A DNA stretch of 44,015 nucleotides, taken from Escherichia phage vB_VIPECOTPH05B. The DNA lies in the sequence record PQ429080.1. One strand, written 5' to 3'. Shown one piece after another: positions 1-43,681 of the stretch. The notes under the pieces are model-generated. The model saw only the letters and a list, made by a program, of their open reading frames with translations. It did no database searches and was not told where the DNA came from. The position numbers and the translations under genes are program-made. Position 1 is the stretch's first letter. Each line of letters begins with the position of its first letter.

Positions 1-1857
1 TTATCTTCTTCCTCTATGTTGTTTACCTCTGCCCCGGCTCTGCAGCCGAGCAGCTACACCCCGAAGGCCCTTAGACACTTTGCTCTGTGCCCAATCCAAC
101 GGGTTCTCAATGAAGGCCCGAGCCATCTTCTCAGACTCACGCTCAGCCACTACTTTCTCGTCTTCCACCAGGTGCCCGTTCAGCGTAGCCACCATCATGG
201 CGATTGCGTCTGCTCGGTCATCCTTAGCCAGGCTACCGCGGTCGTACGTGATACCAGCCAACTGTGTGAACGCAGAGTACAGCCAACGTCTATCGCGGGA
301 GTACGCCATACAGGTACTGATATCGTCGTGAACCGCACGCTCATGCACCACCAGGCGGTGACGGCGAGTAACTGGGCTGATTGTGTCGATTATACGACGC
401 TCTTTCTGCGTGGAGTTGTTCAGGTCCCTTACACCGATACCGGCGAGACGTCGCTCCCGTAACCGGTTCAGGATAAGCATAGACACGGTGCCGTGCCCCA
501 TGTTGCTCTCCACCACCATATCCGGGATGTCTAACTCTACGCACAGGTCAATCAGTTTATCAATGTTCTCTTCGCTGATACCTCCTTGGAAGCCGCCTAC
601 GGAGAATAGGTGGATGTACGAGTTCGCAGCACCACCAGCAGCGTAGGACACTTCGTCTCCGCCACAACCAGCCGGGTCCACCACCAGCACCTTATGCTGG
701 TACGGCAGGTGCATATCCCCGTAGAATGCTGGGAAGTACATCTGCTGACCCATAATCCCCTCATGCTCGTGCTGGTACAGGTACCGGCGGTCTGCAATGT
801 AAGAGAACGTCTCGGGAGAGGAATCCTGACTGCCTGAGTAAACCAGCATATCCGAAAGCTTGATGCGTGTACGCATCTGGTCGGACAGGGTGGTATCGAG
901 CATGTACTGTAGCTGGAAGCCCTCCGGACCGAAGTCCAGCTCCTTCTCAATCAGTGCATCCTCATCATAGCGCCCAGTGTCTGTGCTCTCGCCTAGCGTC
1001 CCGTCGACGCCGAAGCCGGTGCGTTTATAGCCGCGCTCAATAAGCTCCAGTATATAAGGAGCAAGTGTACTTCCATATCGCTCTTCCATTTCAACAGATG
1101 GAATGCGCCCAGGCCACACGCGGACCTCAAAGCCACGTCCCGGCAGGGTTTTATAGATGCTGTCCTTGGTCTGCGGTGTGCCAAGGTACAGTATGTCCCC
1201 ATGCGTACAGATAGCTGCGAAGTCCTTCGAAATCATCAGCAGCTGCTCACGCTGGGTTTGCGTTAAGCCGTTCTTGGTGGTCTCGATATCGTCTGGAATC
1301 AGCAGGTCCGCACGCTTCCCCTGCAGGGATGCAGTGATACCTACACAGGCCACGCTGGCGGACTTATCCAGTGGTTTCAGGTCGCAGTTGACATCATAAC
1401 CTTCGAATGAAGTACGGTCCCCACGAGTAGGGTCAGCCTTCAAGTAGCACAGCAGTGGCCAGGTTTCCAACATACGAATGATTAGGTTCGCTACATCGGA
1501 CGCCTGCTTCTCTGCACCAGACACAATCAGAATACGGCAGGATTGGTCCTGGATAAGCCTCCAGACGGCATAGAGTGCAGCCAGTGTAGACTTAGCTTCA
1601 CCACGCTGTGCGGCCACCATGCGCTTCCTAGGGCCCTTCTGCATGTACTCTGCAATGTCGGCCTGCATGTCCGTCAGCGTAAAACCCAGGAATCGCATAC
1701 CGATGTACGCGAATTCCCGGAAGTCACTTAACGCAGCGGCCATCATCATCGCGATGTCCTCGCGCTCCTCTTTGGGAATACTGCGCGGATTCGCACTATA
1801 ACCAGTAAGTTTCTGGTTGAGCATGCGCAGTCTTCGCGCAGTCTTCACCGATACCAT
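1..1857 (-). CDS. Terminase large subunit (T7 gp19-like packaging ATPase/nuclease)
   Basis: 618 aa; ATPase-like N-terminal half and nuclease-like C-terminal half typical of T7-group large terminases; last gene of the structural block; stop codon (TAA) occupies window positions 3..1. Confidence 0.88.
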   Translation of the reverse strand: MVSVKTARRLRMLNQKLTGYSANPRSIPKEEREDIAMMMAAALSDFREFAYIGMRFLGFTLTDMQADIAEYMQKGPRKRMVAAQRGEAKSTLAALYAVWRLIQDQSCRILIVSGAEKQASDVANLIIRMLETWPLLCYLKADPTRGDRTSFEGYDVNCDLKPLDKSASVACVGITASLQGKRADLLIPDDIETTKNGLTQTQREQLLMISKDFAAICTHGDILYLGTPQTKDSIYKTLPGRGFEVRVWPGRIPSVEMEERYGSTLAPYILELIERGYKRTGFGVDGTLGESTDTGRYDEDALIEKELDFGPEGFQLQYMLDTTLSDQMRTRIKLSDMLVYSGSQDSSPETFSYIADRRYLYQHEHEGIMGQQMYFPAFYGDMHLPYQHKVLVVDPAGCGGDEVSYAAGGAANSYIHLFSVGGFQGGISEENIDKLIDLCVELDIPDMVVESNMGHGTVSMLILNRLRERRLAGIGVRDLNNSTQKERRIIDTISPVTRRHRLVVHERAVHDDISTCMAYSRDRRWLYSAFTQLAGITYDRGSLAKDDRADAIAMMVATLNGHLVEDEKVVAERESEKMARAFIENPLDWAQSKVSKGLRGVAARLQSRGRGKQHRGRR

Positions 1858-4431: not shown

Positions 4432-7400
4432 TTAATCGTCTCCGAAGTTATTGATGATAGCTCGCGTAGGTGCGAATTCCTGTATTAGCGGCACCTGCTT
4501 AGTGAAGGTCTTTATATCCATATTACCGGTAGCCAGGTCCTGTACGGCCCCGAGCAACCCTGTGACGTAACCCATAGATGCCAACGAGTGACGAGGGGAA
4601 TCTCCCAGGAAGATATCCTGCAGTAAGGATACCCCGCCGATGGCACTCATACCCATTACGGACTCGCTGATGAGTTTCTGAGTGTCTACGTCCTTACCAT
4701 CCATGCCATGCTTAGCCATAGTAGCCAGCAGCATTAACGGGAACTGGTACGCCATAATATGGGCTACGCCAATCCACCCAGCGTCGTTCAGCTCTCTGCG
4801 CAGAATCTTGTTAGTGGCTGCCAGTGCGAAGCTCTGGTACCCTACAATGACTTTGCCGATAGGATTGAACTGTGCAAAGTGCGAGGTCTCTCCAGTACGA
4901 ATCTGCTGTACCAGGTAGTCCATCATACGCGTCCCCACAACCTCAACTTGCATCTGCAGGTCCGGCTGGAACATAGCGCCCGGGTTAGCCTTGTTGGCAG
5001 CGATAGCGCGGTCAGCAACATCGCGAGTAAGCCCGAAACGCTCCAGACGCTTAAACGCCTCAGCATCGCCCTTGAACATCTGAGTAAGCTCGTCCGCCAC
5101 AATACCGGAGTTCAGGTTCACCTGTAGCCGGTGCACCATGCTCATACCGTTGACGTGACGGGCAGCCTGCCCAACGTTCTGGGTGACGTTGAACCAGGAG
5201 GCCTGACGGGTCAGGTCCAGGTTATCGTCAGCGTACGTATTCAGCCAGCGGAAGCGCATCTCCTTCTGAATATTACCCCGCAGCACGGTATCTAGACGAG
5301 CAGCCATATCCGGGGTCTTGATAGCCACGGCACCTTCCTTGAACCAAGGCTGGTCACGCATACTGCGCAGCACTCTAGCCATACCGAACTCCTTCATAGC
5401 CAAAGCAGTATCGGTCAGCTGATACAGGCCGGAGTTCTTAAGCATAGTGGCGTTTGCCATATTCCCAGCTGCACGCAGCAAGTCCGGAAGCTGCCCAGCG
5501 TCAGCAGGTGCCCCACCCAGGATAAAGTCGATGGTGTCATTGACGGTCTTCTCCCACTTGGCGGAATCCGCTAGTACGTGCTTAGACTCATCAATCATCT
5601 TGGCGAGCTGTCCCAGGTCCTGTACGCCTGCATAGGCCATACCTACACGTCCAGACATACGGTTAGTGTACCCGTGCATAACCTTGGCTACGTCAGTATC
5701 CATCAGGTCCTGCATGCGCATGCTCTTACCGTTCACCAGATACTCTTTATCCATGTTGAACCGAGTACGCTGGCGCAAGTTCCGCGCAGGGGATGTGCTG
5801 CCGGATTCGCGTACGTTACCAGCCAGGAAGCTCTGGATTGCAGACTCTTCTACACCGGCGCTGCGCATAGCCATAACGACCTCGTCGTTACCCATGCCGT
5901 TAATCAGCTGCTTCCACATAGGGCCAGCCTGCCCAGCACGGCCATTGTAGATGCCGTCAACCATCTCCTTAGCAACACGCTGCACTACCTCTGACTCCAT
6001 GCTCGGGTACACATCCCGCAGGGCGGACCGGAACAGGGCGCGGTAGTCATCCAGGGTATTGCCTTGTGCGATACCTTGGCGCATCTTGTCGTAGCTGTAC
6101 TGGCGCGGGAAGTAGTAGTCGGATTTAACCAACGCACCATCATCCACTAAACCGGCATTGAGCATATGCTCGTGCCACTTGCTAGCCCAGCCAGAGCGGC
6201 GATAGGCGTCAACCAGTGGAGCAATCTCTGCGTCCGGCACCGGCACAGCGCGGCCGTTTACGTCAGCGCTGTAGGCAGCATCCAGGTACTTGCTCAGGCG
6301 GTCTTCCAGCGCAGCCCGCTCAGCGCGGAAATTACTACGATGGAAGAAGCGTGAGAGTACACCTACACCCTTATCCTTCAACGCGCCCAGGATAGCATCT
6401 TCCACTACGCTGGCGCGAGCATCCATCTCCAAAGTTAGGTTACGCTTGTAGTCTACCACTGACGGGCGACGGCCGCCTACTGCGGACGCATCCGACACTA
6501 GCAGTTTAGCCAAGTCTTCGTTGCCTTGGGCGATATTATCGTACAGGGCAAACATAGTGGAGAGCTTCTTCTTAGCGCCGTCCAGCATAGCTTGGGCGCG
6601 CTTAGCCTCATTGAGGGTGGTGCTGCCCGCCAGGTCCTGGAAGGCTTCGCTACGGAAGCTCTGGGCTTGGTCTGCATAATCCTTAGCTGTCCACTTAACT
6701 GCGTCCTCATACGCATCCAGGACATCTTCCAAGGCAGAGCCTTTTGCCTTGATGCCCAGAGCGTTCATGATGTACTCACCCAGTTGGCGGAGCATACTCT
6801 TACCGGTGGGAGACTGCGTACGTGCCAGGTGCTCAACCCACTCAGGGCTGTCGCCTAAGCCTGCCAGCATCTCATGCACATTACTTGCGTAATACCGCAT
6901 ACGCGGTGTCAGGGTGGAGTCAGCCGCAATAACAGCGCGCACTTCCTCCAGGCGTTTAGCAATCTCGGGATTACTGTCAATGGCGCGCGCAGTAGCAGCA
7001 TGAATCAGTTCGTGCACGGCCACCTTGCTTGTATCTGCATCCATAGCGCGCAGCGCATCGCCGACTGTAGTCCAGGTGCTGCCGTTAGCTTGCTTAGGCG
7101 CACGCAGGGATATCTCTCCCCGCTTAGCTAAATCTTGTTGTGCGTAAGTGTAGCGGCTACGGTTTGCGGAGCCTGCTACCAGTTTAAAATCAATGTCATT
7201 TACAGCATCGCCCAGCGTGTACAGAATAGCCTTCTGTCCTGCTGTCAAGTGCTCAGACTTCTTCAAGAACTGAACTACGTGCTGTGCTTTCATGTTCACG
7301 GAGGCGGTATTGTTTCTCGATACTTGGATGCTTTCATCCAGTGTCTTAGTGAGAATTTCCTCTCCCTCTCCTACTCCGGTAACATTAGCATCCCTCGCTG

Positions 7401-13841: not shown

Positions 13842-14402
13842 TTAAACCATAAAACGAGCACGGCGGATTCTGCGTGCAAAGCGGGTCTTGCTGGTGCTGA
13901 ACTTCTGATTGCGCAGATGCTCGCGCAGCACCATGCTCTTGTAACGTTCAGCTTCCTGTGCGTAATTAGCGTAGTTGCTGTCGCCGCCCAGGTCGTTGAG
14001 GTACACCTGTGCAGTGGTGTAGTGAGCCACCCACATAGCGGCGTGCTCCGGCAGGTCCCCAAAGGCCAAGTCAAGGACTATCTTGAGCTTAACTGGGCTA
14101 TCGAAGTATTGGTTCTGCTCTACCAGGTCGTATAGGTTCCCGTCACGTACCCCGTACTTGGATTCTGAGCAGGCGTCATATACAGCCAGCTGGTTCCACG
14201 GTACCTTAATCAGGCCGTCGGTGGTGGGCGTAACTTCACGCTCGACCACGTTAAACCAGAACCCTGTGCTGAGCAGCCCACGACGATTGCGTGCAAGCGC
14301 AGAGCGAGCTAACCCTGCACTGGGGTTACTGGTGTTGATGTCCATAACGCGAGACTCCCCAAGGGCTTCCAGCGTCAGGTTCACAGCGTCTAATTCTCTC
14401 AT
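13842..14402 (-). CDS. Tail tubular protein A (T7 gp11-like)
   Basis: 186 aa (T7 gp11 is of similar size); follows the capsid gene and terminator, precedes tail tube B. Confidence 0.7.
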   Translation of the reverse strand: MRELDAVNLTLEALGESRVMDINTSNPSAGLARSALARNRRGLLSTGFWFNVVEREVTPTTDGLIKVPWNQLAVYDACSESKYGVRDGNLYDLVEQNQYFDSPVKLKIVLDLAFGDLPEHAAMWVAHYTTAQVYLNDLGGDSNYANYAQEAERYKSMVLREHLRNQKFSTSKTRFARRIRRARFMV

Positions 14403-14447
14403 ATTTGTTCCTCTATTAAAGACCCCTTGGACCTTTAAGACAGGGAC

Positions 14448-14482
14448 AAAAAAAAGCCCCTGGCACCCGAAGGCACCAGGGG
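14448..14482 (-). terminator. Rho-independent terminator downstream of the capsid gene
   Basis: On the minus-strand transcript: 11-bp stem (CCCCTGGTGCC / GGTGCCAGGGG, two G-U pairs) closed by a UUCG tetraloop and followed by eight U. The stem is poorer on the plus strand, so it is oriented with the genes. Confidence 0.7.
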
Positions 14483-14488
14483 CGCGTA

Positions 14489-14671
14489 TTACTCTTCCGT
14501 AGTGTCGGCGGCTACGTCAGCCGCCTTGCGGGTTTTCTTGGTAACCTTGCGGCCAGACTCGACCGAGGCCACCTGGATGTTCTTAGCTACATCGGTGGCG
14601 GCCTTAACCGCCTCCCGCTGAGCCGCATTGGCCTGGAGAGTCTCCAGACCGAACATAGCGATTACTGCCAT
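14489..14671 (-). CDS. Small hypothetical protein downstream of capsid (60 aa)
   Basis: ATG start with GGAGG 6 nt upstream; sits between the capsid stop and the terminator. Confidence 0.45.
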   Translation of the reverse strand: MAVIAMFGLETLQANAAQREAVKAATDVAKNIQVASVESGRKVTKKTRKAADVAADTTEE

Positions 14672-14682
14672 TGAACCTCCAA

Positions 14683-15702
14683 TTAGGACTTGGTGGTGAA
14701 GGTGAACTTGGTCACTGCAGCGGTGTCCGGACGACGCAGACCGATGTTGTACATCGCGTAGCAGTCCAGCACGTTGCTGAACTCACGCTCATCGTCCCAG
14801 ATACGGGAGGTGAACGGCTTAGCTTCAACAGTCACCAGAGTCTTGGACTTGCTGAAAGTCACCATACGGCACAGCGCGTCGTCAGCGGTGACGGTGTAAG
14901 CAGAGCCCAGAGGGTGTGTACCAGCCGAGGTCGGGAACTCGGTGCACTCTACTACAGGCACGCCGTTCATCTTCACTACACGACGGTCTTTGTAACCGTC
15001 GTTGTTGGACGCACCGAAGTCCAGGTTAAGGAGCTTCGGATGCTCCAGCAGACGCGAATAGGTATCGACATCCACCAGGGTAATCATGTCCGCCAGCGGG
15101 GTCTTGCGCTTGATGAGTTCATCAATACCAGCCTTGTGGGCCAGGTTGATGTTCATGGCGTTAGCCTCCATCTCAGCCTGGGTCAGCTGAGTGGCGGTAG
15201 TGGTACCCGGAACCAGGATAGCTGCACCTACCTCGATACCGTCGTTGAACGCAGGTTTCAGGTGCGCCGGTGCAACCCAGGAGCGGCCCTTGATGAGCTG
15301 AATCAGGTGCGCCTGGTCGAAGGTCTCTGCGAACTCGGAGCCGTTGTTCTGACCCATCTCGGTCAGGAAGTCCGGACCGGTCCAGTCATCCTGGTAATCA
15401 ATCGGGTTACGGATATACAGCACCGTATCCACCACGATAATCATCTTATCGTTACGGACCGGGGTGCTATCCAGCGCCTCACCGGAGCGACGACCCTTCA
15501 CCGAAGAGGTGTTCAGGCGGTCAATACGGTAGGTGTTGGAACCGCTGATAGAGCGCTGGCTGGAGAGGCCCAGGAATAGAGCCTGGTACTGGAAGCGGGT
15601 ATCCACTTCGTTCTGGTACACTTCCAGGTGAATATCTACGTCAGACGCCGCGCCGCCCCAGTGGGCTCTTGTCAGATTACCTTTATAGATAGTGTCGGCC
15701 AT
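14683..15702 (-). CDS. Major capsid protein (T7 gp10-like)
   Basis: 339 aa; size, composition and position (after scaffold, before terminator) match T7-group major capsid proteins; AAGGAA 8 nt upstream of ATG. Confidence 0.88.
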   Translation of the reverse strand: MADTIYKGNLTRAHWGGAASDVDIHLEVYQNEVDTRFQYQALFLGLSSQRSISGSNTYRIDRLNTSSVKGRRSGEALDSTPVRNDKMIIVVDTVLYIRNPIDYQDDWTGPDFLTEMGQNNGSEFAETFDQAHLIQLIKGRSWVAPAHLKPAFNDGIEVGAAILVPGTTTATQLTQAEMEANAMNINLAHKAGIDELIKRKTPLADMITLVDVDTYSRLLEHPKLLNLDFGASNNDGYKDRRVVKMNGVPVVECTEFPTSAGTHPLGSAYTVTADDALCRMVTFSKSKTLVTVEAKPFTSRIWDDEREFSNVLDCYAMYNIGLRRPDTAAVTKFTFTTKS

Positions 15703-15714
15703 ATTTTACTTTCC

Positions 15715-16191
15715 TTATTTAAGTACATTAGCAGATGCATAGGTGTGCATCTTCGCTTTAGCTTTTAGATAGGCATCCCGCGCTGCTTGTTTGCAGTCAA
15801 AATGCCCGAGGTGTGTTGTCTTACCGCCTAGCTTTATGTAGGCCCGCCACTTGTTAGCGCGGGAATCCCAACAATAACCTTTCCACACAGAGTTCTGAGC
15901 ATTGCCTGATTTATCAACTAGGCGCAGGTTCTCGATTCGATTGTCTGCTTTATCCAGATTAATGTGGTCCACCATCATTCCCTCGGGTATATCCCCATGG
16001 TGCATGAACCAAATAAGCCGGTGCGCATATTCTCGTACCCGACCCAGTGCCCCACGGTCCCAGGTCACGCGGCGATATCCCCAGTTATTCTGGTAGGTAT
16101 CCCCTAAGCGTCCAGTAGCCTTGTTAATCAAGCGCCCATCTTCTGTGTAGGTATAGCGATTGGCTAGTTCTTGCAAGAGATTAATCTCCAT
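15715..16191 (-). CDS. HNH homing endonuclease with C-terminal AP2-like DNA-binding domain
   Basis: 158 aa; HNH motif (HRLIWFMHHGDIPEG ... DHINLDKADNRIENLRLV ... NAQN) and AP2-like C-terminus (WRAYIKLGGKTTHLGHFDCKQAARDAY); inserted between scaffold and capsid genes. Confidence 0.8.
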   Translation of the reverse strand: MEINLLQELANRYTYTEDGRLINKATGRLGDTYQNNWGYRRVTWDRGALGRVREYAHRLIWFMHHGDIPEGMMVDHINLDKADNRIENLRLVDKSGNAQNSVWKGYCWDSRANKWRAYIKLGGKTTHLGHFDCKQAARDAYLKAKAKMHTYASANVLK

Positions 16192-19366: not shown

Positions 19367-19388
19367 TCCTACTCCGGTAACTTCATTT
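19367..19388 (-). promoter_or_regulatory. Conserved element AAATGAAGTTACCGGAGTAGGA, copy 2 (candidate phage-RNAP promoter)
   Basis: Between the RNAP stop and the first late-side gene; 21 of 22 nt identical to the copy at 41059..41080. Confidence 0.35.
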
Positions 19389-19389
19389 A

Positions 19390-21858
19390 TCAGCAGAAGA
19401 AGAAAGGTGATTCCAATACCTGCCGGATGTCCAGAGTACCAACCTCAGGCATATCCAGGTCCGTCAAATCCGCCCCGGCGGCTGCCGCCGCGCGAGTGAT
19501 ATCCCCAAGCAGGTCGTGCTCTTCATAGAGGCGCACAAACTGTTCTCGGATGTGTCGGTGCAGAGCGTCAACATCGGCTGCATGTGTAGCCAGGGAGTCG
19601 TGAATCGGCACAATGTCCAGACCCTCGGCGGCACATAGAACCATCATCAAGTGTGTACTATCCAGGCTATGCACAAAGTTCGGGGCAATCCCAGAGGCTG
19701 CCTTGCGCTTGTTGCAGGTCTTGAAATCCCGATTATGCACGCGCATGATTGTGAGGTTCATACAGTCAATTCGTACCCGCACTTCTTCACGCTGTGTGTA
19801 GCGGTTCATTACGAGCCCACCCAGTGGCGTATACCACTGCAGGTGCTGGCTTGCCGGTACACGCCTAGCGAGGTTCTGCAAGTACGACATAACTGCCGCA
19901 GCAGCAGGGTTTGCCTCCTCGATAGCGGCGCGCATACGCGGAGCCAGGTAGCACGACAGATTCCATAGACTGTTAGTGTCGGTACCTTCATACCCCTCAG
20001 CGCAAGCGCCTTCAAAGATGTAGTCACTGCAGCTGCGCACCGTGGCGCTGTAGAAGTAGGTCATACTGGGGCGCTTGGTCATACTGCGGGTGATTTCGTT
20101 CTCTCTCCAGTACGTACTTTGGATAACGAAATCCTCCTTGTCCAGGTCCAGTATCACCTTCTCGTCCGTACGGCGCTTCACGTCCATGTACAGGTCCGCT
20201 TTCTTGTCGTTACCCTCCCAGTACAGGTTCGTTAGACGACCTCCCACAGGGTCTCTCAGGAGCGCTGAGAGGTGTTGCCCACCTGAGTTTGTAGCGTCCA
20301 TAGCAACTGGGATTCGGCTAATATGCTCTTCTGGGCATCCAGAACGCACAGCATTAACCAGATCGATAGCGGCCGCCAGAAAACACCAGGGGCTGTCTGC
20401 CTCGGCAAAAGCATGGCAATCAAACGGTGAAACCACAAGCTCTTCGAGCGCTGCAAAGTTCGCATCAACCCAAGCTGCGCGGTCTTCGAATAGGGTTTTG
20501 TCATAACCAAAGCATGTGGCGACGTGTACCTTGAGCCAGAATAGTCCCCGCTCACCCAGAGGTTTTCCTCTGCCAAACTCAAGAAGGGCTTTCTGCAAAT
20601 CAGAACCTTGGGGGTGCAGCGAGGACTTGAAGTACAGGCGGTAGCGCCAGTCCACACAAGTCGGGAAGTACAGTGCTTTCTCATCTTTGAATTCCTCTGC
20701 CATTTCCAACGTAGTCAGAAGGCTGCGCAGTTGCGATACACGCTTACGGTCGGCGCTGTACCATAGGGACATACGCGTCTTCCACTCACCGAAGCGGTCA
20801 AGCTCTTCCTCGGTGTAGTTCTCTTTCGGAACCCCGTCCAGATACCACTCCGGTTTCGGCTCCGGTACTGAGCGAGGCATACCTATCCCAACACCCAGGG
20901 CCCGTGCTTCTTGCACCAGTTCAAGTATGCGCTTATTAATACGGTATGGGGTTTCCTGTGCCTTATTAAGCGCTTTTTTGATGCCATCCGCGGACTTAAA
21001 TGCTTCCGCTACTTCACGGAGACGAGCTCTGTCAATGTGCGAGTTATGATAGGTTCCGCGATTGTCGATAGTGGTGAGGTACCCACCGTCCCACAGAGTA
21101 GTGTGCTGCACCGGCGGTACCAGCATAGGCGGCTTCATGGTTACAGTGTCAGCGGACTCTACCAGTTTCTGGAAGGCCTCCATAACGTCGTCAGCCGGAT
21201 AGAGCATGCTCAGATTCCCGCTACAGTTCTTCCACTGGAACAGTCCCGTCTCAAACACTGCGGCACACAGCAGACGCCCTACGGAGATGTTCTGGGCATT
21301 GGTCCAAGGCTCGTGCCCGTAGTGTACGTTCTCGGCACTGGCACGGAGCGTACGCAGGATGTGCGTAGGGGACTTCGTACGGCGCTCTGTGAGGTACTCA
21401 TACACGCGGTCCATGTACGCTGGGGCTACGTTGCGTAACTGCAGAGCCAGTAGCTCTGACTGTACGTTTCTGCCTAGTGCGGACATTACAGCCTGTGCAG
21501 TCTGACGGCGACTGGCGGACTCGCCGGGGGCGACGCTGAACGCCTCAAACATTGTGCACAGGCTCAGGGTGGTCAGGACATCCAAGGGGATTAAGCGCAG
21601 GAACCGGCGGTACTTCCCACCTATGCCAGGGGCTTTGACATTTCGCATCTCATCTATAGCGGCAGCAGCCACTTCGTATGCCGAAGTGAGCATACGCTGC
21701 GTCATAGGCAGGTTCATAATACCACCGTTCTGCAACGCGTCCGTAATCAGCTTACGTGCCCGCTCGATTCCGCGAATCTTATAGGCCTCTTCAAGCTCCA
21801 GCTGGCGTTTCACCAGTGCTTCCTCTGGTACTACAACCGTATTCAGGGCGCTAATCAT
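19390..21858 (-). CDS. Single-subunit DNA-dependent RNA polymerase (T7 RNAP family)
   Basis: 822 aa; T7-RNAP-like motifs (VAMDATNSGGQHLSALL; late PNFVHSLD/H-D region); located at the end of the replication block, directly upstream of structural genes. Confidence 0.95.
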   Translation of the reverse strand: MISALNTVVVPEEALVKRQLELEEAYKIRGIERARKLITDALQNGGIMNLPMTQRMLTSAYEVAAAAIDEMRNVKAPGIGGKYRRFLRLIPLDVLTTLSLCTMFEAFSVAPGESASRRQTAQAVMSALGRNVQSELLALQLRNVAPAYMDRVYEYLTERRTKSPTHILRTLRASAENVHYGHEPWTNAQNISVGRLLCAAVFETGLFQWKNCSGNLSMLYPADDVMEAFQKLVESADTVTMKPPMLVPPVQHTTLWDGGYLTTIDNRGTYHNSHIDRARLREVAEAFKSADGIKKALNKAQETPYRINKRILELVQEARALGVGIGMPRSVPEPKPEWYLDGVPKENYTEEELDRFGEWKTRMSLWYSADRKRVSQLRSLLTTLEMAEEFKDEKALYFPTCVDWRYRLYFKSSLHPQGSDLQKALLEFGRGKPLGERGLFWLKVHVATCFGYDKTLFEDRAAWVDANFAALEELVVSPFDCHAFAEADSPWCFLAAAIDLVNAVRSGCPEEHISRIPVAMDATNSGGQHLSALLRDPVGGRLTNLYWEGNDKKADLYMDVKRRTDEKVILDLDKEDFVIQSTYWRENEITRSMTKRPSMTYFYSATVRSCSDYIFEGACAEGYEGTDTNSLWNLSCYLAPRMRAAIEEANPAAAAVMSYLQNLARRVPASQHLQWYTPLGGLVMNRYTQREEVRVRIDCMNLTIMRVHNRDFKTCNKRKAASGIAPNFVHSLDSTHLMMVLCAAEGLDIVPIHDSLATHAADVDALHRHIREQFVRLYEEHDLLGDITRAAAAAGADLTDLDMPEVGTLDIRQVLESPFFFC

Positions 21859-26453: not shown

Positions 26454-26651
26454 CTAGCGGTTCTTGAGTGCGGACTTAATGCCGATAGCCGCAGCTGCCG
26501 CCACTCCACCCGCCGCCAGAATTGCCAACAGCAAGGCGATGCCGCCGTAGAATGGAAGCAGTACCCACCACCAGGACCAGGCGATAACTCCGGTCAGTTT
26601 CAGGGTTACAAAGATAAGGCCCAGTACAGAACAGATTCCCATTTTCATCAT
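26454..26651 (-). CDS. Small membrane protein (two predicted TM helices)
   Basis: Start taken at the internal ATG cluster (ATGATGAAAATG) just after the phosphoesterase stop, with GAGGTG upstream; sequence GICSVLGLIFVTLKLTGVIAWSWWWVLLPFYGGIALLLAILAAGGVAAAAAIGI. Confidence 0.45.
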   Translation of the reverse strand: MMKMGICSVLGLIFVTLKLTGVIAWSWWWVLLPFYGGIALLLAILAAGGVAAAAAIGIKSALKNR

Positions 26652-26661
26652 CACCTCGATA

Positions 26662-38461: not shown

Positions 38462-38490
38462 ATGAAACCTCATACTCCAGTTGCATTCAC

Positions 38491-38512
38491 ATAGCGCCCC
38501 GTAGGACGCTAT
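38491..38512 (-). promoter_or_regulatory. Conserved intergenic hairpin, copy A
   Basis: Minus-strand RNA AUAGCGUCC-UACG-GGGGCGCUAU: 9-10 bp stem with a UACG tetraloop; about 27 of 30 nt identical to copy B. Confidence 0.45.
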
Positions 38513-38522
38513 AGGCTTGCTA

Positions 38523-39471: not shown

Positions 39472-39518
39472 AATGCACCTCGTTGATTGTTGGTTGTTTA
39501 CTTATCGAATTACTTCAC

Positions 39519-39540
39519 ATAGCACCCCATAGGATGCTAT
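39519..39540 (-). promoter_or_regulatory. Conserved intergenic hairpin, copy B
   Basis: Same stem-loop as copy A; one stem base pair is G:C in A and A:T in B (both partners changed), so pairing is preserved. Confidence 0.45.
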
Positions 39541-39549
39541 AGGCTGTAA

Positions 39550-40879: not shown

Positions 40880-41694
40880 CCTTACATAGTGATGAGTAGC
40901 GTAACCATAGCGACGATATCCCGGAGGGATAGGAGCGGAGGTTACAAGATTCTAGGGATAGCAGCCTACTGCGTAGGCACAGGGCTATCCTAGTGAATAC
41001 CTAGTAGGGACTAGTAAGGACTAGTATTAAGTAGTGTGTATATAGTGCCCTAAAACCCTCCTACTCCGGTTACTTCATTTCATAATAGCTTTCGAATGAA
41101 AGTAAGAGCAAAGGGATAGCATTGGGATAGCGCTGGGATAGCGGCAGAGTGTGGATGTGCGCCCTAGTGGGGAGCGCGCAGCGTAGCATATAATTAGCAC
41201 AATGTAAAGCCCCAAGGATAGCCAGTGGATAGCCTAGTGCATACTAGGGATAGCACTAGGGATAGCACCACAGCGCACTAGCTGGCCCACTAGGCAGGCA
41301 CAAAATAAGCAAGGCAGAGCGCACCCCTATGGCCCACAGGGAGCGCACAGGGAGCGCCTAGTGAACGCACAGGGATAGCACCAGTGCCCCATAGAGCGCA
41401 CAGGAAGCCCTACAAGGCACGCACAGGCAAAGCCATAGGGTAGCACTAGCAATAGCCCTAGCGCAGCGCAGAGAGCCACTGAGGCCCACTGGTGCGCCCT
41501 AGCAGGCCCACCCAGTGCCCCCCCCCTAAATTGGCGCTAGGCACCCCCTATGGGGGCAATTGGGCGCGCTGAGGGTGAGGGACCCTGCCGCGTGAGTATA
41601 ATAAATTTCGGGTTCAGGTATAGACGTGCACCCGGATAGCCCCAGATAGCCCCACATAGACGCCCAGTGCTTACTCTAGTACTTACCCTAGCAC
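40880..41694. repeat. ORF-free repeat-rich region: at least 10 copies of GGATAGC plus CACAGGG/CACTAGG motifs, a C9 homopolymer and short tandem repeats; probable genome-terminus region
   Basis: No ORF of 60 aa or more on either strand across about 800 bp; GGATAGC at about 40956, 41114, 41125, 41136, 41216, 41227, 41248, 41259, 41373, 41634 (first three tandem copies spaced 11 bp); C-run at 41518..41526. Confidence 0.6.
41059..41080 (-). promoter_or_regulatory. Conserved element AAATGAAGTAACCGGAGTAGGA, copy 1 (candidate phage-RNAP promoter)
   Basis: 21 of 22 nt identical to the copy after the RNAP gene; lies in the repeat region upstream of the HNH gene. Confidence 0.35.
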
Positions 41695-43099: not shown

Positions 43100-43499
43100 C
43101 TTCTCGTTCCTTACTTTTACCAAACACTCTGCGCATCACCAGGATGACCACTAGGAAGATAAGTGGAATACTGGCCCCGGCTAATCCCGCCAGGATTAGA
43201 CTGTAGCTGTCGTTGTTTACTACCTGTAAACGGTCAGCCTGGATAGTACCAGTACTAATAGTCTGGACCTGCTTCTTACTAGAAGTGTCCAAAGTCCCAA
43301 CTGTAGAATCGGTTACGTCAGTCTTATTGGTGGTGCTGGCATCCACCTTGTTATTCAAGCCAACGGTTTGTTTGGTGTTCTCGGCACCAACCTGAGCAGA
43401 TACATCCGGCTTAGAACCAACTAAGCCGGTGAGTGCAGAGGTCGCCGAGCAACCAGTCAGAGTAACCGCGAGCAGTAACCCAGCGACCAGTTTACGCAT
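43080..43499 (-). CDS. Candidate unimolecular spanin: outer-membrane lipoprotein with C-terminal transmembrane helix
   Basis: 139 aa; lipoprotein signal with lipobox LTGC and Ser at +2; Ser/Thr-rich middle of about 80 aa; C-terminal TM helix (LILAGLAGASIPLIFLVVILVM) followed by RRVFGKSKERE; no Rz/Rz1 pair seen elsewhere. Confidence 0.5.
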   Translation of the reverse strand: MRKLVAGLLLAVTLTGCSATSALTGLVGSKPDVSAQVGAENTKQTVGLNNKVDASTTNKTDVTDSTVGTLDTSSKKQVQTISTGTIQADRLQVVNNDSYSLILAGLAGASIPLIFLVVILVMRRVFGKSKEREDADATT

Positions 43500-43681
43500 T
43501 AGCTTGCCGCCTTCACTGCGGCTACCGCGGCTTCAAGCGCAGCAATCTTGGTATCGAAGTCTGCGCCAGTCTGGGCAACGTTCTGCGGCTGCGTAAGGAT
43601 AGCATACAGGTCCTTACCGAGAATGTTCAGCTGGCGCAGCAGCTCCTGCTGTTGCGCTGAGGTTGCTTTTGCAATTGCCAT
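43499..43681 (-). CDS. Hypothetical small protein (60 aa), helical
   Basis: ATG with AAGGGG 8 nt upstream; TAA stop overlaps the ATG of the lipoprotein gene (TAATG). Confidence 0.4.
   Translation of the reverse strand: MAIAKATSAQQQELLRQLNILGKDLYAILTQPQNVAQTGADFDTKIAALEAAVAAVKAAS

Follow-up and report, generated by a model that had tools for sequence, protein, structure and literature searches.

The capsid gene cluster of Drulisvirus phages ends in a stable RNA hairpin that is followed by a run of uridines. We put the probability at about 0.85 that this hairpin and its U8 tract are the Drulisvirus counterpart of the T7 terminator T-phi and, as an intrinsic (class I type) terminator, end the late transcripts of the minus strand, and that the 60-codon open reading frame (ORF) found between the major capsid protein gene and the hairpin is a separate, co-expressed gene. 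The element has the full anatomy of a strand-specific intrinsic (Rho-independent) or T7 class I type terminator, and no other strong terminator occurs in the genome. It has been described before. An identical hairpin was published as a Rho-independent terminator common to the "Kp34likevirus" or Drulisvirus genus (Eriksson 2015, Table 3), and the terminator is annotated as a regulatory feature in the GenBank record of phage KpV74 (KY385423). There is little new for the terminator itself, beyond showing that an element already published and annotated occurs here with good support. For phage engineers, it is a compact and strongly conserved terminator candidate for KP34-type RNA polymerase systems. 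The 60-codon gene matters because it is under capsid-like constraint and would be read from the most abundant late mRNA, yet its product is absent from the solved virion structures.

Genome Context and Gene Order

The window is the whole stretch of DNA that was analyzed, 44,015 nucleotides from Escherichia phage vB_VIPECOTPH05B (sequence record PQ429080.1). Over 2 kb around the terminator and the small gene, the sequence is 100% identical to that of Klebsiella phage vB_VIPKPNMC07C, and more than 200 further Klebsiella phages of the genus Drulisvirus match it at 92-96% identity. Sequence identity at this level identifies the window as a Drulisvirus genome, that of a KP34-like Klebsiella podophage (Autographiviridae, Slopekvirinae). 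All genes of the window are on the minus strand (Table 1).

Table 1. Genes and sequence elements of the window that bear on the terminator and the 60-codon gene.
Feature	Position	Strand	Remarks
RNA polymerase gene	21858-19390	-	Gene order and profile matches; two small genes follow, before the portal gene
Candidate strong phage-RNAP promoter, TGAAGTTACCGGAGTA	19370-19385	-	Just after the RNA polymerase gene; position and sequence correspond to KP34 promoter S1
Portal gene	18656-17061	-	Profile matches
Scaffold gene	17046-16204	-	Profile matches
HNH endonuclease gene	16191-15715	-	Profile matches
Major capsid protein gene	14683-15702	-	phrog_267; PDB 23sf_I "major capsid protein gp17", 339 aa, E = 3e-222
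Shine-Dalgarno GGAGG of the 60-codon gene	14676-14680	-	4 nt before the ATG
60-codon gene	14489-14671	-	Next gene after the major capsid gene; homologue of KP34 gene 43 (KP-KP34p43), phrog_7403
Terminator hairpin	14456-14483	-	12-bp stem (9 G-C, 1 U-A, 2 G-U), c(UUCG)g tetraloop
U-tract (T8)	14448-14455	-	Immediately 3' of the stem
Conserved leader, U-tract to tubular A start codon	14404-14450	-	Tentative second hairpin; tubular A Shine-Dalgarno at 14409-14413
Tail tubular protein A gene	13842-14402	-	PF17212, phrog_446; would be the first gene dependent on terminator read-through
Tail tubular B gene	13832-11472	-	Gene order; internal virion protein genes next
Decoration protein gene, 60 residues	43499-43681	-	Just after the terminase genes; matches 23sf_G and HRP29 Gp48

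Anatomy and Strand Specificity of the Hairpin

The minus strand around the element reads ...GAAGAG TAA TACGC GCCCCTGGTGCC-TTCG-GGTGCCAGGGGC TTTTTTTT G.... The 5' arm of the hairpin occupies 14483-14472, the UUCG loop (closed by a C-G pair) 14471-14468, and the 3' arm 14467-14456. The U8 tract at 14455-14448 begins at the base right after the stem. The hairpin is located 5 nt past the stop codon of the 60-codon ORF, and the terminator ends 45 nt ahead of the tubular A ATG. Minus-strand RNA forms a perfect hairpin with a centroid energy of -26.5 kcal/mol (z = -3.3 in a 61-nt context). In plus-strand RNA, A-C mismatches replace the adjacent U-G and G-U pairs and open up an internal loop, and the folding energy is -19.5 kcal/mol. 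The plus-strand transcript also has the wrong geometry, with an A-run 5' of the weakened stem and no U-run after it. The transcript of the coding strand, and only that transcript, has a U-run immediately 3' of a G+C-rich stem-loop, and the element is intergenic, past a stop codon and at the end of a transcription unit.

A consensus scan recovers the hairpin together with its T-run and counts 12 pairs, of which 9 are G-C, and a 4-nt loop. Such scans found nothing near this quality elsewhere in the 44-kb window, where the remaining hits equal the shuffled expectation. A search of 14300-14800 against Rfam returned one chance miRNA-like match only, far below threshold. The original prediction had placed a terminator with a UUCG tetraloop downstream of the capsid gene, had argued that its G-U pairs make it specific to the minus transcript, had noted that it sits where T7 has its major late terminator, and had named terminator prediction as a check. 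All of this is borne out: the 12-bp stem and U8 are there, the two strands differ in folding energy and in the placement of the A-run, the location is after the capsid cluster and before tail tubular gene A, and the scan recovers the stem together with its T-run.

Conservation of the Terminator Across the Genus

The published genus terminator is located at 26623-26660 of KP34, between KP-KP34p43 and KP-KP34p44, and is also reported for SU503, SU552A, and F19 (Eriksson 2015). The 28-nt hairpin of the window, GCCCCTGGTGCCTTCGGGTGCCAGGGGC, is identical to that of KP34, SU503, SU552A, and F19 and is followed by a T-run in the same slot. The T-run has 8 residues in the window vs. 9 or 10 in the five published phages, and there is otherwise no material difference.

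The comparison set comprised 63 sequences, namely the window, two GenBank records and 60 IMG/VR contigs. The terminator is present in all 63. Across 57 related loci the hairpin is near-invariant, with a mean pairwise difference of 0.010 per site vs. 0.167 at the third codon positions of the neighboring ORF. Two pairs vary, and the only substitutions seen are U-A to U-G and G-C to G-U. All of them keep pairing on minus-strand RNA, and the opposite strand would not pair. The variation is too low for double-compensatory covariation, none of which was seen in the hairpin, and shuffle controls are therefore uninformative; the support from conservation consists of the low divergence together with the one-sided, pair-preserving changes. 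The U-tract varies from 5 to 19 T among relatives and is lost in none. The hairpin also stays intact after the 60-codon gene where extra genes have been inserted. The inserted genes are one for a 155-residue HNH endonuclease past the terminator, a 114-residue ORF ahead of it and, in sequence L015, an 86-codon ORF that separates the capsid gene from the small gene.

Proposed Transcription Unit and Comparison With T7

The promoters of the KP34 RNA polymerase were mapped by 5'-RACE and in vitro transcription (Lu 2019). A strong promoter lies immediately after the RNA polymerase gene, a second is in the internal-virion-protein region and a third is near the left end. According to a figure legend of that paper, the plasmid template carries a T7 class I hairpin terminator at which the KP34 RNA polymerase is expected to stop (Lu 2019). 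KP34-promoter-like sequences occur in the window at 19370-19385, past the stop codon of the RNA polymerase gene, at 7370-7385 and at 41062-41073. A homologue of the KP34 weak promoter is found at 19418-19437. There are no further phage-promoter matches in the window, and none between 14448 and 7385. The candidate at 19370-19385 differs from KP34 S1/S2 at two or three positions. It is probably a strong promoter of the phage RNA polymerase, from which the unit closed by the terminator would start.

Transcription by the phage RNA polymerase would probably start at about 19370-19385, just downstream of the polymerase gene. Read most simply, this would be a late unit that spans about 4.9 kb between about 19369 and 14448. 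Its transcript would carry a small virion gene followed by the portal, scaffold, HNH, capsid and 60-codon genes, and would mostly end at 14448-14455. Far more mRNA would in this way be available for the head genes than for the tail genes, and the 3' end of the transcript would be shielded by the stable c(UUCG)g hairpin. Termination is probably incomplete because no phage promoter was matched between the terminator and about 7370-7385 that could serve tail tubular A, tail tubular B and the first two internal virion protein genes, and read-through of a leaky terminator would feed the tail genes. The literature yielded no 3'-end mapping or termination assay of this site for any Drulisvirus.

In phage T7, T-phi is a class I terminator that is found after gene 10 and before tail tubular gene A (gene 11). 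Read-through of T-phi is needed for the downstream genes 11 and 12. The Drulisvirus element resembles T-phi in that a stable hairpin and a U-run follow the capsid region and precede tail tubular gene A, that the late transcripts would be made by a single-subunit phage RNA polymerase, and that the downstream tail genes are proposed here to need read-through. The two differ in that their sequences are unrelated, the loop here being a c(UUCG)g tetraloop, and in that a separate small gene, not a 10B frameshift extension, is placed between the capsid gene and the terminator. In the T7-like phage LUZ100, long-read transcriptomics also revealed a strong terminator directly past the capsid gene. The order of capsid gene, small ORF, hairpin with T-run and tubular A recurs in VP93, PS3, and Entb_48-like phages. 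Each of these has a hairpin and U-run of unrelated sequence in the same slot; that of VP93 also has a c(UUCG)g loop, and that of PS3 is annotated.

The 60-Codon Gene

The 60-codon ORF starts 11 nt past the capsid stop codon. It is intact and has an ATG start in 63/63 sequences, which represent 51 distinct nucleotide sequences, and its length is 60 codons, or 65 in the Minorna/SFN6B-like subgroup. The variable sites are distributed 14/14/37 over the three codon positions. The ratio pN/pS is 0.18 in frame vs. 2.39 and 1.03 in the other two frames, and the capsid gene of these genomes has a comparable value, 0.13. The first 50 codons are under selection of roughly capsid-gene strength, and the C-terminus evolves fast. 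The Shine-Dalgarno sequence is GGAGG in 61 of the 63 sequences and GGGGG in the other two, and it is kept even where a gene is inserted upstream (L015). A 60-residue ORF with a good ribosome binding site had been predicted between the capsid gene and the terminator, and the spacing and conservation of this site agree with that. Purifying selection, together with start and stop codons that are intact across relatives, marks the ORF as a genuine, independently translated gene.

The product matches the phrog_7403 profile over its full length (residues 1-60 vs. positions 1-60 of 60, E = 9.3e-40) and belongs to the family of KP34 gp43. It is 95-98% identical to its homologues in KP34, F19, and phiKpS2, and the family has no assigned function. 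The ORF was found by tblastn in 247 phage records, nearly all of which label it "hypothetical protein." Drulisvirus phages are widely used in Klebsiella phage therapy, and every Drulisvirus sequence compared carries this gene.

Family and Predicted Role of the 60-Residue Product

The product has a hydrophobic N-terminus and an amphipathic helix. These are followed by a basic patch of charge +6 (RKVTKKTRKA) and then by an acidic decapeptide of net charge -4. Across the family, the N-terminal residues (about 30) are conserved and precede the basic patch and an acidic or variable tail. Searches of Pfam, NCBIfam, and PADLOC gave no function by homology, and PHROGs gave a function-unknown family only. 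A word-index search retrieved Drulisvirus copies only. A HMMER profile search of 1.84 billion representative proteins retrieved the product's own cluster and one weak repetitive match that was taken as spurious. By direct search, the family is restricted to the genus.

Relatives whose capsid proteins are 64-83% identical almost always have a small ORF in the same slot. Many of these ORFs begin with MA[VI][IL]..[FY], are helical in the middle and end in a Lys/Ala-rich tail, as in MAVLASFSS...KKAKKAAKAAE, MAVLKQFTSEH...KAKAKAKAKE, and MALIASIGFEPL...KKKAKKAE. Gp38 of Providencia phage PS3, a 72-residue protein of Entb_48/phiKDA1 and an unannotated 42-codon ORF of VP93 occupy the same slot between capsid gene and terminator and have this form of N-terminus and tail; a function is known for none of them. 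BLAST and HMMER comparisons of the ORF with its positional counterparts gave nothing significant. Profile-profile alignment against two groups of them gave scores of 27.2 (hhalign probability 79%) and 21.9 (27%), with residues 1-30 in register. None of 200 column-shuffled controls reached the observed scores, the maxima being 16.2 and 19.7. The ORF is probably homologous to the small post-capsid proteins of neighboring genera, which would form a fast-diverging family that keeps one genomic position. The proposed range of this family comprises Drulisvirus, phiKDA1/Entb_48-like phages, Kakivirus and possibly Maculvirus, and its proposed traits are the conserved N-terminal helix of about 30 residues and the Lys/Ala-rich tail.

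The placement of the gene suggests that its product would be made from the same abundant mRNA as the capsid protein. Our best guess for the role of the product is a head-morphogenesis accessory or an internal, non-icosahedral and disordered head protein, rather than a surface decoration. This guess is made because of the sequence features, the presumed capsid-level expression and the invisibility of the protein in icosahedral maps. We suggest more tentatively, and at odds clearly below even, that the post-capsid proteins are a single position-locked family that is made in capsid-like amounts and stays invisible in icosahedral maps, either as internal or DNA-associated head proteins or as assembly cofactors.

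The Decoration Protein Gene of the Window

The capsid protein of the window matches several solved structures. These include chain I of 23sf, HRP29 Gp37 (8eld), and also 8vb0 and 9s9b, which we take to be PhiM1 and a phiKMV-type phage, respectively. Small helix-turn-helix dimers (about 60 residues) staple such capsids at the two-fold axes. The PhiM1 dimers go by the name "alpha-claw," and an "alpha-paw" or spike variant occurs alongside them. The product of the gene at 43499-43681 matches the 23sf_G "decoration protein gp5" with E = 2.5e-29 and HRP29 Gp48 with E = 3.5e-21. As judged by these matches, the alpha-claw family member of the window is this gene and not the capsid-adjacent ORF.

The capsid-adjacent product resembles the alpha-claw proteins (PhiM1 gp44, HRP29 Gp48, Ar-KM gp55, and 23sf gp5) in being about 60 residues long, alanine-rich and helical, and in coming from the same phage supergroup. 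It differs from them in three ways. It has no sequence similarity to a solved member: no PDB chain matched at E <= 10, and BLAST gave no alignment with the window's own gp5 homologue. It is encoded beside the capsid gene and not after the terminase gene. AlphaFold2 predicts one continuous helix (residues 2-58) and not a helix-turn-helix, at a pLDDT of 64 and with a low-confidence stretch of 20 residues at the C-terminus, which limits what this model says about the fold. The gp5 homologue used as a control is predicted with helices 9-30 and 32-59 at a pLDDT of 82, even from a single sequence. Some records label the capsid-adjacent ORF "capsid and scaffold protein" or "tail tubular protein." It should not carry a decoration or capsid protein label, and recognizing that the true decoration gene is elsewhere in the genome prevents the spread of a wrong annotation.

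Alternative Explanations

The hairpin might not terminate transcription and might mainly be an RNA processing or 3'-stabilizing element, or a site that works at the DNA level. The hairpin and the next 45 nt are more conserved than a simple terminator would need, and homing endonuclease genes insert nearby. However, a perfect G+C-rich stem with 5 to 19 U directly after it is the anatomy by which intrinsic and class I terminators are defined, substitutions are tolerated only in a form that suits the RNA of the coding strand, and VP93, PS3, and Entb_48 have unrelated analogues of hairpin and U-run in the same place. We consider a processing element or DNA site quite improbable. A different proposal concerns the ORF, which could be a C-terminal extension of a minor capsid protein made by -1 ribosomal frameshifting, similar to T7 gene 10B. 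The ORF is read in the -1 frame of the capsid gene, and in the window this frame has no stop codon over the 37 codons that precede the ATG. The relation of the two frames is not conserved, though: the open stretch varies from 0 to 40 codons among relatives, an in-frame TAA stands immediately ahead of the ATG in 13/63, a 1-nt spacer indel alters the relation in L049, and the 86-codon gene of L015 separates the two reading frames. The overlap contains no X XXY YYZ slippery heptamer, and the Shine-Dalgarno sequence and ATG are conserved. A 10B-type extension was rejected on the absence of a slippery site and the unstable frame relation, and we regard it as extremely improbable. The one record that annotates a capsid-ORF fusion (MT360680.2) is riddled with frameshift sequencing errors and was discarded.

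For the protein product, the original prediction had favored a minor capsid or decoration protein, which would be located on the head exterior. The ORF adjoins the capsid gene and is placed upstream of the terminator in the same unit, so that its product should be abundant, and the related podophages PhiM1, HRP29, and Ar-KM do carry decoration proteins of about 60 residues. This role did not find support, as the solved capsid of a near-identical phage (23sf) fills it with the protein encoded at 43499-43681, another 60-residue gene. An ordered, stoichiometric surface role is unlikely because that other gene matches gp5, and the ORF product lacks both a PDB match and any sequence resemblance to the gp5 homologue, with a single helix as its predicted structure. 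The Entb_48 counterpart likewise matches only three unrelated, non-phage PDB chains (best E = 0.016). An exterior decoration protein is improbable on these grounds, and a disordered, low-copy, internal, portal-proximal or purely assembly-phase role is possible. No virion proteomics or mass spectrometry was found in the literature searched for Drulisvirus. The strongest competitor is a late non-structural factor, whether regulatory, host-directed or anti-defense, that would lie beside the capsid gene just for high late expression. Such a factor would fit with the absence of the product from all solved structures, with a family that direct searches detect within the genus only, with the quick evolution of the C-terminus, and with a site that is an insertion hot spot for unrelated accessory genes. 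It fits less well with selection of nearly capsid strength on the first 50 codons, with a conserved position and probable remote homologues in other genera, and with the lack of any match to anti-defense or defense models. We hold it to be less likely than not, but a serious competitor.

The Leader Between Terminator and Tail Tubular A

The 45-nt leader of tail tubular A, from the U-tract to the tubular A ATG, is near-invariant across the genus, with a mean pairwise difference of 0.02 per site. A second hairpin can form in this leader, with the Shine-Dalgarno sequence of tubular A among its paired bases, and all four variable pairs of this hairpin keep pairing. The folding energy of this hairpin is unexceptional (-15.1 kcal/mol, z = -1.4). 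Tentatively, the leader hairpin could act as a translational damper for a low-copy tail protein.

Decoration Protein and Other Small Open Reading Frames

Sequence matches and a structure model show that the capsid decoration protein of this phage is the product of the gene at 43499-43681, which is distinct from the 60-codon ORF adjacent to the capsid gene. Among PDB entries, the product matches 23sf_G, the "decoration protein gp5" in the solved capsid of a near-identical phage (E = 2.5e-29), and Gp48 of phage HRP29 (8eld_H; E = 3.5e-21). AlphaFold2 predicts a helix-turn-helix, and the corresponding PHROGs entry, phrog_7375, is labelled as unknown function. Two alanine-rich ORFs are also found near the lysis/terminase region. 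With an E value of 8e-11, the 61-residue ORF matches families that PHROG labels "head fiber protein". Its product may be the partner of the decoration protein, of the spike or alpha-paw-like type described for PhiM1. Searches of PHROG and PDB with the 81-residue ORF returned zero matches.

In the Vibrio phage VP93, an unannotated 42-codon ORF (MAKVIDLRAKW...) follows the capsid gene and precedes a hairpin terminator with a c(UUCG)g loop. Two related IMG/VR contigs also have this ORF, which is probably a missed gene in the same slot as the small ORF of Drulisvirus. A different kind of record is the deposited sequence of Klebsiella virus 2019KP1 (MT360680.2, locus L071), the capsid region of which contains many frameshift errors. 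The CDS annotated there as "major capsid protein" continues past the capsid gene across both the small ORF and the terminator, and it was rejected as an artefactual fusion within frameshift-ridden sequence.

Features of the window and of related loci. Loci of relatives (L numbers) are in their own coordinates
Feature	Location	Strand	Remark
Decoration protein gene, 60 residues	43499-43681	-	just downstream of terminase genes
Alanine-rich ORF, 61 residues	41695-41880	-	near lysis/terminase region
Alanine-rich ORF, 81 residues	43693-43938	-	near lysis/terminase region
VP93 ORF, 42 codons	L064 2511-2639		FJ896200
HNH endonuclease gene	15715-16191	-	in window phage, between scaffold and capsid genes
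HNH gene, 155 residues	about 2770-3250 in L016, L056, L061		immediately 3' of terminator
ORF, 108-114 residues	L021 2721-3065; L063 2774-3100		upstream of terminator
ORF, 86 residues	L015 2241-2501		between capsid gene and small gene
Tubular A leader, 45 nt	14404-14450	-	terminator U-tract to start codon
KP34 promoter homologues, strong and weak	19370-19385, 7370-7385, 41062-41073, 19418-19437	-	by sequence
30-nt motif CCTATAGCRTCCTAYGGGGYGCTATGTGAA, two copies	38486-38515, 39514-39543	-
Terminase large subunit gene	1-1857	-	window begins exactly at its stop codon

Insertions and the Tail Tubular A Leader

Gene insertions are concentrated where the capsid gene, terminator and tubular A meet, a hot spot whose inserted genes are listed in the table. 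The 155-residue HNH gene of the relatives carries a copy of the MREL start of tubular A. The leader of tubular A is nearly invariant across the genus and contains a possible hairpin that would sequester the Shine-Dalgarno sequence of this gene. All substitutions seen in the hairpin retain pairing; its computed folding energy was not significant.

Promoter Homologues and Genome Layout

Strong and weak promoters of the KP34 RNAP have been defined by experiment (Lu, 2019). Their homologues in the window sit where the KP34 positions predict, with C in place of the A of TTACAGGAGTA, giving TTACCGGAGTA. The copy after the RNAP gene has additional differences from KP34 in its 5' part. The 30-nt motif was formerly put forward as the phage promoter of the genus but was shown not to drive in vitro transcription by the KP34 RNAP (Lu, 2019). 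The window, with its ends at 1 and 44015, is a circular permutation relative to deposited genomes, and its high-coordinate end holds the lysis cassette and the left-end region of the genome.
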